Positions 18,361-20,376 of a stretch of DNA of 64,000 bases are shown here, in pieces. Made by a program: the position numbers and the translations under genes. Position 1 is the stretch's first letter. Each line of letters begins with the position of its first letter. The stretch comes from Dictyostelium discoideum (lineage: Eukaryota): NCBI GenBank assembly GCA_000004695.1, contig CM000152.2, positions 6,016,001 through 6,080,000 of the forward strand, read 5' to 3'. The notes beneath the pieces were generated by a model, which searched no databases, was not told the origin of the DNA, and saw only the letters and a program-made list of their open reading frames with translations.

Positions 18361-18737
18361 TTAATGGGTGGAATAGTAGAAAAATGCACATCCAGCAACA
18401 ACTAAAACAAAGATAATAGCGATGAAATAAATACCCTGTTTTTTTTTTTAATTTAATACAATTTATTAATATTTGTTTTTTAATTTTTTTTATTTTTTTT
18501 ATTTATTTATTATTTTGTATACATACTGCAAGTATTATTGAAGCAAATACAATTCTTCTTGCATGGATATTAGGTGATCTTATATATACAATGTTGAAAA
18601 GTAATGGTAACCAAAAAAATACACCCAAAATTATGAATGTTAATGAAAATGGATAATCATGTTCAAATTCTTTTGAATTTGATTCTGATTTATTTTTACA
18701 AATTTCATTTCCTTTTTTAAATTCAGGACTTGCTCCC
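18361..18737 (-). CDS. Small two-TM-helix protein, paralogue 1 of a local family (possible pseudogene or missing 5' exon: no in-frame ATG); complement(join(18361..18435,18527..>18737))
   Basis: Exon ...KEFEHDYPFSLTFIILGVFFWLPLLFNIVYIRSPNIHARRIVFASIILA is followed by a GTATGT donor at 18526. An AACAG acceptor leads to the exon GIYFIAIIFVLVVAGCAFFYYSTH-stop. It is homologous to paralogue 2 at 19230-19654. The upstream frame is closed by TAA with no ATG. Confidence 0.4.
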
Positions 18738-19229
18738 CTATTGTATTAAAATTAAAAAAAAAAAAGTAAAGATAAAATAGAAACGGGAAAAAAAAAAAAA
18801 AAAAAAATAAAAATAAGGAAAAGGAAAATAAAAAATAAAAAAAAAAAAGGAAAACGAAAATAAAAAAAACCCTAAAAAGGATAGTTTACAAATAAAATTT
18901 TTATTAATTTTTGAATGTGGGGAAAACCAAAAAATTCTAGATGTAAAAACACAGTTATTTAATAATAAAAAGTAGAAATAAAAATGGTGGTTGAGGTTAA
19001 AAAAAAATATATATAAAATTGTTACAAGGTATATGTTTCTCATTGGAATTATTAAACATATAATAATAAAAAAAAAAATTGGTAAAAACTAAAAAAAGTA
19101 TAGAAAAAAAAAAAAAGATTGAATAATCTTCATAGTATTAAAAAATTGATAAATTAAATAAAAATGATTGTTAATTTAATTTTTATTTTTTGTCAATTAT
19201 TTGACTTTTTATTTTAAAAATGGAAAAGT

Positions 19230-19654
19230 TTATATATAGTTCAATGGGGGATAAAGGTAAGAAATTGTCAATGAAATAACAGTAGCAATAAAATAACAAG
19301 TCTTTTTTAAAAAGAATAAAAGAGGAAATTTTAATATGTTATTATTGCTTTTTTATATTTTTTTTTTAATTTTTTTTTTTATTTACGTACTCCTATTATT
19401 AATGATGCTACAGAAAATCTTCTTGCTTGAATATTGGGAGATCTAAAAAATATAAGGTTGAAAATTAAAGGTAGCCAAAGAAATAAACCAGAAATTAAAA
19501 ATACTAAAGAATGTCTATAATCATCAGAATAATCTTTAACTCTTTGATTGTTATAATTTTGATTTATTTTTTCAAATTCTTTATTATTTTTAAATGACTT
19601 TGATTCATTCCCATTTTTTTCTACATCTAATTTATTTAAAATTTTTTCAGTCAT
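19230..19654 (-). CDS. Small two-TM-helix protein, paralogue 2 (112 aa); complement(join(19230..19301,19391..19654))
   Basis: ATG at 19654 (MTEKILNKLDVEKNGNESKSF...YRHSLVFLISGLFLWLPLIFNLIFFRSPNIQARRFSVASLIIG). GTACGT donor at 19390 and a poly-T intron. An AAAAAG acceptor at 19302 leads to the exon TCYFIATVISLTISYLYPPLNYI-stop. The structure matches paralogue 1. Confidence 0.55.
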
Positions 19655-19956
19655 TTTAATTTATAAGAAAATAAAGTAAATTAAATTATATAACAACAAG
19701 ATAAAAAAATAATATTCACAATTTAAAAAAAAAAAAAAAAAAAATTTAATAGTGGACTTTTAAAAACAACACAGTCTTTGGAATAAAAGATATGTGTTTT
19801 TTATTTATTTTCAATAATTTTTCCAAGTTACCCCATTGTATTTTCAATTTTTATTAATTTTAATTTATTATTGTTATTTGAATTATTCTTTTTTTTTTTT
19901 ATAATTTTTTTTTTTATTAATATTATTTTAAAATATTCAATATAATAATCAATAAA

Positions 19957-20220
19957 ATGGAAGATTGTAATAATAATAATTATGAGGAAAATGAAAATGG
20001 GGCACAATTTAAATTATACAATAAAGACAAAGAAATAAACAATCCACAAACAAAATTTGATCAAAATGATTTAGATTATAAACTTGATTATGAATTTTCG
20101 TTAGGTTTTTTAATTGTTGGCATATTTTCATGGTTTTCATTTTTTTTTTATTTTATACATTAGATCTCTCAAAATTCTCATGCAAGAAGAATGTCTGCTA
20201 CATCAATAGTTATTGGAGTA

Positions 20221-20251
<31 letters not shown>

Positions 20252-20376
20252 CTGGAATATTAAAAAACTAAAAATTATTTTATTTTAATTTTCTTATAAT
20301 AAAGAGTTCTTATTTTATTTTTTTCTTTCTATTTTGGGTTGTGTTAACAGTTCCAAAGGAATACTATTATTATTAA
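19957..20376 (+). pseudogene. Paralogue 3 of the small TM-protein family on the opposite strand, with an in-frame TAG at 20161-20163; join(19957..20217,20305..20376)
   Basis: MEDCNN...DYEFSLGFLIVGIFSWFSFFFYFIH-TAG-ISQNSHARRMSATSIVIG, then a GTATGT donor at 20218 and a poly-A intron. An ATAATAAAG acceptor leads to the exon SSYFIFFFLFWVVLTVPKEYYYY-stop. The region after the TAG is still in frame and homologous to paralogues 1 and 2 (SPNIxARRxSxASxIIG), so the stop is a nonsense codon, not a frameshift. Confidence 0.5.

Follow-up and report, generated by a model that had tools for sequence, protein, structure and literature searches.

The window (the whole 64-kb stretch of DNA that was analysed, from chromosome 3 of Dictyostelium discoideum AX4) contains three adjacent two-exon paralogues, here called P1, P2 and P3. 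Their frames were confirmed at the coordinates listed below, where the sequence-only reading had placed them, and the AX4 gene models DDB_G0282635 and DDB_G0282637 reconstruct exactly on the window, which establishes the identity of the locus. The cluster region is approximately 17% G+C, and the N-terminal tails of the encoded proteins are rich in Asn and Lys. Using tblastn, no further copy beyond these three was found in the 64-kb window. The cluster consists of the following features:

18361..18435, minus strand: P1 exon 2, G-I-Y-F-I-A..., then stop (also matched by tblastn)
18436..18526, minus strand: P1 intron, 91 nt, GTATGT..CAG, phase 0
18527..18737, minus strand: P1 first-exon remnant, opening at G-A-S-P-E-F, with its frame from 18736/18737
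18738..19229, no strand assigned: spacer between P2 and P1, with a deletion junction beside 18737-18745
19230..19301, minus strand: P2 exon 2, T-C-Y-F-I-A..., remainder of TM2, stop
19302..19390, minus strand: P2 intron, 89 nt, GTACGT..AG, phase 0
19391..19654, minus strand: P2 exon 1, with ATG, polar N-tail, TM1, R-S-P-N turn and first half of TM2
19655..19956, no strand assigned: AT-rich P2/P3 spacer, 302 bp, between divergent start codons
19957..20217, plus strand: P3 exon 1, with TAG at 20161-20163; intact in the independent assembly L004
20218..20304, plus strand: P3 intron, 87 nt, GTATGT..AAAG, phase 0
20305..20376, plus strand: P3 exon 2, S-S-Y-F-I-F..., then stop; identical in L004

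The spacer at 19655..19956 is presumed to be a promoter region shared by P2 and P3. The spacer at 18738..19229 is the former promoter and 5' region of P1, and is counted by the deposited models within an intron of 649-654 nt.

Proteins of this family are approximately 100-120 aa long and consist of a polar N-tail followed by a two-helix membrane hairpin. In P1-P3 the common order is a polar N-tail, a TM1 with W-x-P-L-x-F-N, a conserved segment ([RK]-S-x-N-x-[HQ]-A-R-R-x-[SA]-x-[AV]-S-x-x-[IF]-[GA]), a phase-0 donor and then x-x-Y-F-I. The S-P-N-I wording given by the sequence-only reading does not hold for P3, which reads S-Q-N-S-H-A-R-R. The family was defined by alignments A1-A3, and its alignment contains eleven invariant columns. 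The family motif is W-x-P-[LFW]-x-F-N at the end of TM1, followed by [YF]-[IFL]-[RK]-S-x-N-x-x-A-[RK]-[RK]. P1 and P2 match it in full, as does P3 in its L004 version; the window P3 departs from it at four residues (Pro, Leu, Asn, Arg) and also contains the stop. A phase-0 intron of approximately 70-135 nt is located inside helix 2, after ...I-[GA], and exon 2 starts with x-x-Y-F. This feature was found in all three window copies and in the canonical models of ten called genes (L001-L003), with the P1 orthologue of L001, the donor of which is deleted, as the sole exception.

Orthologous clusters of two to five copies each, with the intron position unchanged, are present in L001, L002, L003 and L005. 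Searched with a profile, 1.8 billion proteins yielded 37 relatives at E <= 1e-3, and every named relative among them is a dictyostelid. Close members matched at E-values of 1e-25 to 1e-69, and distant members from dictyostelids at 1e-21 to 1e-3. Hits outside the dictyostelids, for example to Rhabdomonas, were marginal. Orthologue pairs of P1, P2 and P3 gave dN/dS values of 0.2-0.35, with dS up to 0.9. It might be supposed that the three frames are no genes at all and that AT-rich, low-complexity DNA makes them alike by chance, as the base composition and the Asn/Lys-rich tails could suggest. This is extremely improbable given the orthologues at five other loci (four further assemblies), which share the position and phase of the intron, the dN/dS values, the eleven invariant columns, the 37 relatives and the expression evidence given below. 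The earlier proposals of paralogous two-exon genes for small two-TM proteins, and of a similarity beyond low-complexity coincidence, are therefore borne out by the frames, the shared layout, the orthologues, the dN/dS values and the profile relatives. The family evolves as copies are locally duplicated and lost, under purifying selection of moderate strength, and the cluster is an ordinary birth-and-death gene family.

In an AlphaFold model (pLDDT 70-84), helices span residues 26-70 and 75-104 and R-S-P-N forms the turn; the hydropathy profile peaks at residues 48-64 and 86-102. In the predicted hairpin, helix 1 would terminate in W-x-P-L-x-F-N-x-x-[YF]-[IF], the four-residue turn [RK]-S-x-N would reverse the chain, and helix 2, split by the phase-0 intron, would begin with the basic x-[HQ]-A-R-[RK]. 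Pfam scans of P1-P3, ten distant members and 42 aligned members returned only scattered, sub-threshold matches to unrelated membrane families. Profile searches gave no significant match to PDB sequences, and a Foldseek comparison of the AlphaFold model against the PDB returned unrelated generic hairpins (best E > 4).

Two known families of small membrane proteins were compared with this one. CD225/dispanin proteins (PF04505; IFITM, PRRT1, PRRT2) are likewise small, with a variable, often Pro-rich N-terminus and a C-terminal pair of hydrophobic helices separated by a short conserved basic loop; Pro-rich N-termini occur in the long relatives of the hairpin family, and PRRT1 was the top, non-significant PDB sequence match (E = 0.23). 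The dispanin loop is longer and has a G-D motif, whereas the turn in the hairpin model is four residues. CD225 was matched neither by P1-P3 (E <= 10) nor by the ten distant members (E <= 0.1); in the scan of 42 members, which matched 94 families, it did not figure in the top 25 by number of matches. Homology was dropped after hhalign against IFITM3 (approximate query sequence) gave a probability of 16% over 23 columns, in TM2 only. NDFIP/Bsd2 proteins (PF10176), adaptors of NEDD4-type ubiquitin ligases, are also small polytopic membrane proteins, and long members of the wider hairpin family have N-terminal DPRLLPPPPPP...Y stretches reminiscent of PY motifs. NDFIP proteins have three transmembrane helices and cytosolic PPxY motifs; by model and hydropathy the hairpin family has two helices, and inspection of P1, P2 and P3 found no PPxY motif. 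Weak PF10176 matches occurred in 4 of the 42 members (best E = 0.025, 15.2 bits, against a gathering score of 24.7 bits) and in none of P1-P3, and this homology was also dropped (hhalign against NDFIP1, approximate query sequence, 3% probability).

P2, presumably functional, is the only one of the three copies that is intact in the window sequence. Its spliced product is 111 aa, its exon 1 is identical in L004, and its intron position is common to every orthologue and paralogue. Orthologues were identified as P0002, P0003, P0005, P0055 and P0056, with 94% full-length identity to P0002 and dN/dS of 0.28-0.35 across orthologue pairs.

P1 lacks a start codon, as the sequence-only reading had observed: its open frame of 94 codons contains no Met, and in-frame stops lie immediately upstream. 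Relative to L001 and L002, approximately 40 bp are missing, including the ATG and M-N-D-S-[RK]-K-Y-D-I-E-S-T-S, and the same deletion is carried by L004. In four relatives the ATG and 13 more codons are found directly 5' of G-A-S-P-E-F in the same exon. The loss is thus not that of a missing or unrecognised 5' exon, as had been suggested, and the phase-2 acceptor proposed at the start of the frame is a fortuitous AG beside the deletion and no ancestral splice site. This AG, or a neighbouring one, is used by the two deposited models that fuse P1 to P2. A deletion of about 40 bp took the ATG and the first 13 codons, and P1, being without a start, cannot be translated from its own transcript. The P1 orthologues of L001, L002 and L005 retain the ATG; that of L001 has lost its GT donor through a 13-bp loss, and that of L005 has a disrupted exon 2. 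Since these orthologues were damaged independently, the P1 copy is dispensable. The lesion is confirmed in an independent assembly (L004) and stands against an intact start in L001, L002 and L005, and we regard P1 as a young unitary pseudogene, recently disabled, so that the pseudogenisation suggested earlier is favoured. P1 resembles the unitary pseudogenes of tandem families under birth-and-death evolution in that its start is deleted while orthologues keep theirs, P1 orthologues are damaged differently across lineages and copy number at the locus varies (2 to 5). The remaining 94 codons are free of stops and frameshifts and their dN/dS against relatives is low (0.21-0.29). A clean frame and a low dN/dS are expected for a very young pseudogene, and also for an exon that is still used.

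It is unlikely, but P1 could instead be alive if, after losing its start, it came to serve P2 as alternative 3' exons. A donor at the end of P2 exon 1 would then be spliced to an AG at 18733-18738, giving a fusion of 163-182 aa. The junction would run from 19387 to 18732 or 18737. Fusions of this kind are modelled by both DDB_G0282635 (AX4) and ACTFIT_011999 (the L004 assembly), both models can be reconstructed exactly on the window using GT..AG introns, the P1 frame is undamaged, and the DDB_G0282635 locus is expressed. The fusion, however, requires an intron of 649-654 nt that engulfs the conserved last exon and 3' end of P2, when family introns in the window are only 87-91 nt, and the junction differs between the two annotation pipelines. 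In the AX4 version an extra 62-nt "intron" with the junction 19505|19442 deletes the conserved TM1 and puts the exon that follows in a frame other than the conserved one, and in the 182-aa version the second helix of P2 is halved. Gene calls in L001 and L002 treat P1 and P2 as two distinct genes, the ATG of P1 survives in L001, L002 and L005, and P1 orthologues have decayed independently in other lineages. A rescue of P1 in which it supplies P2 with alternative terminal exons, giving a tandem-hairpin fusion protein, is a slim prospect; if true, it would represent a very young gene formed by exon capture, dated after the closest sequenced relatives split off. The young pseudogene is the reading retained here for P1.

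P3 carries the in-frame TAG at 20161-20163 with its downstream frame intact, as first observed, but the stop is only part of a window-private cluster of six differences at 20137..20200 on the plus strand:

20137: T (C in the others), Pro to Ser
20142: T (A in the others), Leu to Phe
20149: T (A in the others), Asn to Tyr
approximately 20158-20166: TA lost and CT gained, producing TAG
20200: A (G in the others), Ala to Thr

The stop arises from an indel pair, -2 (TA) and +2 (CT) at a distance of 10 nt, which shifts the 10-mer CATTAGATCT. The orthologue codons ATA TAC ATT AGA TCT CAA become ATA CAT TAG ATC TCT CAA in the window, Y-I-R-S becomes H-stop-I-S, and the TAG is an out-of-frame reading of C-ATT-AGA-TCT. 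The alternative reading to the window at the TAG site is CCATTATTTTTTAATTTTATATACATTAGATCTCAAAAT, and L004 has …TGGTTTCCATTATTTTTTAATTTTATATACATTAGATCTCAAAAT… at this site. Four more substitutions, at conserved residues, share the 65-bp patch with the indel pair. The simple recent nonsense mutation put forward by the sequence-only reading is therefore set aside, and its other suggestion, a sequencing problem or strain polymorphism, is favoured. Intact P3 orthologues were identified as P0009 and P0052.

The L004 assembly is 99.5% identical to the window over 11.3 kb, and all six changes are absent from it. Because they are absent from a near-identical sequence, a bad stretch of reference (or else a private mutation) is indicated. 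On balance, poor quality of the reference sequence over this stretch is the likeliest cause, in which case the real P3 would be intact, at 110 aa. As a less probable though serious alternative, the lesion could be real and reflect one or more complex mutations in the AX4 (NC4-derived) lineage, with the intact P3 of L004 a strain polymorphism. P3 is variably present in the species complex: L001 lacks it and L004, L002 and L005 have an intact copy, so its loss is tolerated. Four isolated SNPs in 11.3 kb also separate the window from L004, so that the two may represent different isolates, and both indels lie in slippage-prone dinucleotide repeats (TATA, TCTC). Against a real lesion are six events in 65 bp beside kilobases of near identity; with a local background of approximately 1e-3 per bp, the Poisson probability of at least six events in 65 bp is 8e-11, which excludes gradual decay. 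The three upstream substitutions, moreover, are all to T within a T-rich run, and in our judgement these changes and the shifted 10-mer resemble base-calling error. A similar window-private cluster, non-coding and derived relative to three outgroups, is present at 13805-13818.

Two other sources of the P3 patch were considered and rejected. Gene conversion from P1 or P2 was rejected because neither has the derived bases. NTG mutagenesis, reportedly part of the history of the AX3/AX4 ancestor, was rejected as the source of both clusters with only 2 of 9 substitutions being G:C to A:T. A 45-mer adjoining the lesion had no match in a metagenome scan. The truncated P3 ORF is unrecorded in other assemblies, and so is the P2 exon-1 ORF, which is certainly real, so that this absence carries no weight.

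The intact downstream frame might also be taken to mean that the TAG is read through or recoded and that the window P3 is functional as written. This can be given almost no credence: the TAG stands in place of a conserved Ile, the adjoining invariant Arg is lost too, W-x-P-L-x-F-N is also altered at its invariant Pro and Asn and its conserved Leu, and an intact allele exists in L004. TAG is not known to be reassigned in Dictyostelium. With a reference error as the preferred cause, P3 differs from unitary pseudogenes in probably being an artefact of the reference sequence; its lesion is found in the window only, and the L004 copy is intact.

Taken as a whole, the locus is likely a tandem cluster of three paralogues in which P2 is intact, P1 is a young pseudogene and the TAG of P3 comes from a reference patch. 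Since the copies are real and only one is intact here, the cluster reflects ordinary gene-family turnover together with a probable error in the reference sequence. The main value of this result is housekeeping for a model organism, and current understanding is unchallenged by it. The chromosome-3 reference looks untrustworthy in at least two short stretches (20137-20200 and 13805-13818), and two AX4 models are artificial, having been built around the missing start or the in-frame stop. DDB_G0282635 (UniProt "Transmembrane protein") is a chimera that joins part of P2 to P1 via introns of 62 nt and 649 nt and skips TM1. DDB_G0282637 (Q54S72) contains an artificial 48-nt intron, with the junction 20115|20164, that ends on the TAG and removes the TM1 of P3. 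The deposited AX4 models at the cluster are not the biological genes, and the conserved two-exon P2 protein of 111 aa is nowhere in the AX4 annotation. Paralogues in the same genome are DDB_G0284233 (Q54PY3) and DDB_G0281147 (Q54UD3), the former located on chromosome 4 and a 5'-short model of 61 aa where other strains show a 112-aa protein. All four are annotated merely as hypothetical or uncharacterised transmembrane proteins. A previously undescribed family of small hairpin membrane proteins, marked by a clear signature motif and induced late in development, is now delimited and could receive a family model and genetic testing.

The cluster loci are transcribed late in development. The gene IDs of the cluster were absent from the text supplements of other RNA-seq and REMI-seq papers. 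Its loci are included in published RNA-seq lists. Because the reads in these lists were counted against the chimeric AX4 models, transcription and splicing of P2 and P1 are not separable in them. Judging from their anatomy, P2 (and the true P3) may be small membrane-embedded accessory or regulatory proteins that act during culmination. In filter development, DDB_G0282635, DDB_G0282637 and the paralogue DDB_G0284233 are listed as upregulated at 18-20 h (PMC4403905, additional file 7), and a comparison of stages gives values for DDB_G0282637 that rise from 0/0 to 5.1/3.5 (PMC8094536, Table S4).

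The three frames proposed in the sequence-only reading were borne out by translation of the intervals, and that reading was correct overall; the explanations it had left hedged came close. G+C content is approximately 20% across the window, whose spacers are poly(A)/poly(T) and whose introns are short and AT-rich. By using tblastn with family members, exactly three copies (the neighbouring paralogues P1, P2 and P3) were located in the 64 kb.

P2 exon 1: 19654-19391, minus strand
P2 intron: 89 nt, GTACGT..AG, minus strand
P2 exon 2: 19301-19230, minus strand (spliced P2 product, 111 aa)
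P1 open frame: 18737-18527, minus strand, with in-frame stops a few codons upstream
P1 intron: 91 nt, minus strand
P1 exon 2: 18435-18361, minus strand
P3 exon 1: 19957-20217, plus strand, interrupted by TAG at 20161-20163
P3 intron: 87 nt, plus strand
P3 exon 2: 20305-20376, plus strand

All three share a layout: a polar N-tail precedes a hydrophobic helix with W-x-P-L-x-F-N at its end, after which the order is [RK]-S-x-N-x-[HQ]-A-R-R-x-S-x-A-S-x-x-I-G, phase-0 donor, and a second exon opening x-x-Y-F-I. When translated, P1 totals 94 codons and contains no methionine.

A protein search returned matches in Dictyostelium only, among them two AX4 models: DDB_G0282635, of 163 aa, and DDB_G0282637, of 94 aa. 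Each can be reconstructed exactly on the window using GT..AG introns, which makes the window the AX4 chromosome 3 reference or a sequence that cannot be told apart from it.

DDB_G0282635 exons: 19654-19505, 19442-19387, 18737-18527 and 18435-18361, minus strand
DDB_G0282637 exons: 19957-20115, 20164-20217 and 20305-20376, plus strand

DDB_G0282635 takes the P2 start, excises the conserved first transmembrane helix (TM1) as a 62-nt "intron", reads 19 codons outside the conserved frame and then jumps 649 nt into P1; P2, the intact copy, is hidden within this chimeric model. In DDB_G0282637, TM1 is again excised, and the 48-nt "intron" has the TAG itself as its end. In ACTFIT_011999 (182 aa), a model taken from a newer assembly, the entire P2 exon 1 is joined to P1 via a 654-nt intron. 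The deposited models compensate for the lack of a start and for a stop in frame, and correction of the two AX4 models is part of the value of this result. In the annotation of an independent assembly (L004 1-4698, minus strand, corresponding to window 19957 onwards), the intact P3 start codon was merged into a neighbouring 2447-aa gene, and P3 was consequently not called.

Orthologous loci were fetched from five sources.

L001: divergent "D. discoideum" strain (GCA_054859385.1)
L002 and L005: two D. cf. discoideum isolates
L003: D. dimigraforme
L004: independent D. discoideum assembly

The cluster is flanked by the same two large neighbouring genes in L001-L004, and copy number varies (called genes: two in L001, five in L002, three in L003, and two plus two uncalled copies in L005). 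Intron position and phase were identical in every intact copy. Nei-Gojobori dN/dS was 0.28-0.35 for P2 orthologues against the window, and 0.21-0.29 for P1 orthologues; the closest P3 pair gave 0.33, and dS ranged from 0.1 to 0.9 across orthologue pairs. Judged from these sequence comparisons, the copies are real protein-coding genes under moderate constraint. Although labelled D. discoideum, L001 lies at a dS of ~0.10-0.24 from the window in P2 and P1, seemingly far above our within-species expectation, which suggests a cryptic species.

For P3, intact orthologues read ATA TAC ATT AGA TCT CAA AAT (I-Y-I-R-S-Q-N) in the codon alignment, and the window reads ATA CAT TAG ATC TCT CAA AAT. The 10-mer CATTAGATCT is common to both and is shifted by 2 nt in the window, where TA is missing from ATATAC and CT has been gained in TCTCTC. 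The TAG is therefore the product of reading locally out of frame, not of a base substitution, and the simple nonsense mutation proposed earlier is not supported. A 65-bp stretch that includes this shift also holds four window substitutions, three in W-x-P-L-x-F-N (Pro>Ser, Leu>Phe, Asn>Tyr) and Ala>Thr at 20200. L004 is ancestral, and conserved, at all six of these P3 positions and has P3 as an intact 110-codon gene.

Across 11.3 kb, L004 and the window were 99.5% identical, differing by four isolated SNPs, seven homopolymer-length differences and two clusters: the P3 patch and a second window-private cluster, in non-coding DNA, with five substitutions within 14 bp (13805-13818). Outgroups side with L004 at both clusters (L001-L003 at 13805-13818), which leaves the window with the derived state. 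Against the window/L004 background, six events in 65 bp have a Poisson probability of 8e-11, which rules out gradual pseudogene decay as the source of the patch. The pattern fits best a low-quality stretch of the Sanger-era reference, a reading we consider probable because three of the substitutions change a base to T within a T-run and there is a local shift of a short motif. The 13805-13818 cluster is an anomaly of the same type and suggests that the reference is unreliable locally. Of the sequencing or strain polymorphism offered earlier, the sequencing part is thus favoured, given a patch private to the window and an intact L004. A single complex private mutation is kept as a less probable but serious alternative; L001 genuinely lacks P3, which shows that this copy is sometimes lost naturally. 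A reference-sequence error patch is the most likely explanation of the apparent P3 pseudogene, and both patches are flagged here as suspect.

P1 differs in kind. Its orthologues in L001, L002 and L005 begin M-N-D-S-[RK]-K-Y-D-I-E-S-T-S-G-A-S-P-E-F, all on one first exon, and ~40 bp carrying the ATG and 13 codons are missing from the window. The separate, unrecognised 5' exon once suggested therefore never existed, and the supposed acceptor AG adjoins the deletion junction. The deletion is also found in L004 and is therefore real rather than an assembly error; base 18737 at the junction differs between the two, L004 having the ancestral AGT. Elsewhere, 13 bp including the GT donor were lost in L001 (~7225-7240), and exon 2 is disrupted (rearranged or truncated) in an unannotated copy in L005 (~3290-3400); these lesions are independent and of different kinds. 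P1 is concluded to be a young unitary pseudogene, in line with the pseudogenisation option of the sequence-only reading.

Splicing of P1 onto P2 exon 1, as the chimeric models imply, is improbable. The intron required would be seven times the family norm, would engulf P2's own conserved last exon and would break the second P2 helix; moreover, the junction is placed differently by the two annotation pipelines, and P1 and P2 are called as separate genes in L001 and L002. An intact P1-like paralogue occurs on another chromosome in other strains (proteins P0012 and P0053), and its AX4 counterpart, DDB_G0284233, is modelled as a mere 61-aa fragment that begins within TM1. At L006 (strain ACTFIR, another chromosome), an intact 112-aa P1-like gene (4001-4432) lies downstream of a fragment (3402-3530) corresponding to P2 residues 44-87, and the locus resembles a dispersed P2-P1 duplicate.

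Additional file 7 of Rosengarten et al. 2015 (PMC4403905), a developmental time course, places DDB_G0282635, DDB_G0282637 and DDB_G0284233 with the genes rising on filters, by column count under UP_Hr18_rapid, with the first two also under UP_Hr20_gradual. In Table S4 of PMC8094536, DDB_G0282637 goes from 0/0 to 5.1/3.5 (logFC 5.4, FDR 0.012) on a sheet between "Streaming vs Vegetative" and "Fruiting vs Mound". From these listings, transcription of the loci is low, with induction during multicellular development; the reads, being counted on the chimeric models, neither separate P2 from P1 nor show the splicing.

An AlphaFold model (12-sequence alignment) gave helices at 26-70 and 75-104 joined by a four-residue turn, R-S-P-N (pLDDT over the hairpin 70-84), with hydropathy peaks at residues 48-64 and 86-102 and a polar, weakly conserved N-tail of ~45 residues. 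Charge by itself is not enough to fix topology: three basic residues lie in the turn together with the first part of helix 2, and the stretch ahead of TM1 is balanced. When 1.8 billion representative proteins were searched exhaustively with a profile, 37 relatives were recovered at E ≤ 1e-3. Those named were dictyostelid only (D. purpureum, D. firmibasis, D. citrinum, Heterostelium album, Tieghemostelium lacteum and Acytostelium subglobosum) and included a further AX4 paralogue, DDB_G0281147; other eukaryote transcriptomes gave a few marginal matches. Pfam had no family at threshold for any member, PDB sequences gave no significant match (best PRRT1, E = 0.23) and Foldseek returned generic hairpins only. 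Profile comparisons gave 16% probability for IFITM3 and 3% for NDFIP1. The family is therefore an orphan, resembling dispanins and NDFIP/Bsd2 in architecture only. The biology is unremarkable: these small hairpin membrane proteins belong to a lineage-specific family shaped by duplication and loss. A previously undescribed dictyostelid family is hereby delimited.

Distant members are often longer, with N/Q/P-rich N-termini, several with DPRLLPPPPPP. In the long relatives (~200-250 aa; P0019, P0020, P0021, P0030, P0033 and P0035), an N-terminal DPR-[LIKT]-[LI]-x-PPPP, absent from P1-P3 and recalling WW-domain (PY) ligands, precedes Tyr-rich stretches. The distant paralogue DDB_G0281147, outside the window, appears among REMI insertion hits in an AprA chemorepulsion mutant screen as listed in PMC9073555, a weak lead.

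Just downstream of P3, a GC-richer nested inverted repeat with inner hairpins (20535-20660) has 28-nt arms at 20559-20586 and 20619-20646 (89% complementary) and folds as RNA at -43 kcal/mol (z = -5.3 vs shuffles). It had no Rfam match, occurs once in the window and had no blastn match in L001, L002, L003 or L005. Higher G+C and a strongly negative AT skew mark 56-62 kb, around two tRNA genes.

tRNA-Ile(AAT): 56152-56224, plus strand
tRNA-Val(AAC): 62780-62854, plus strand
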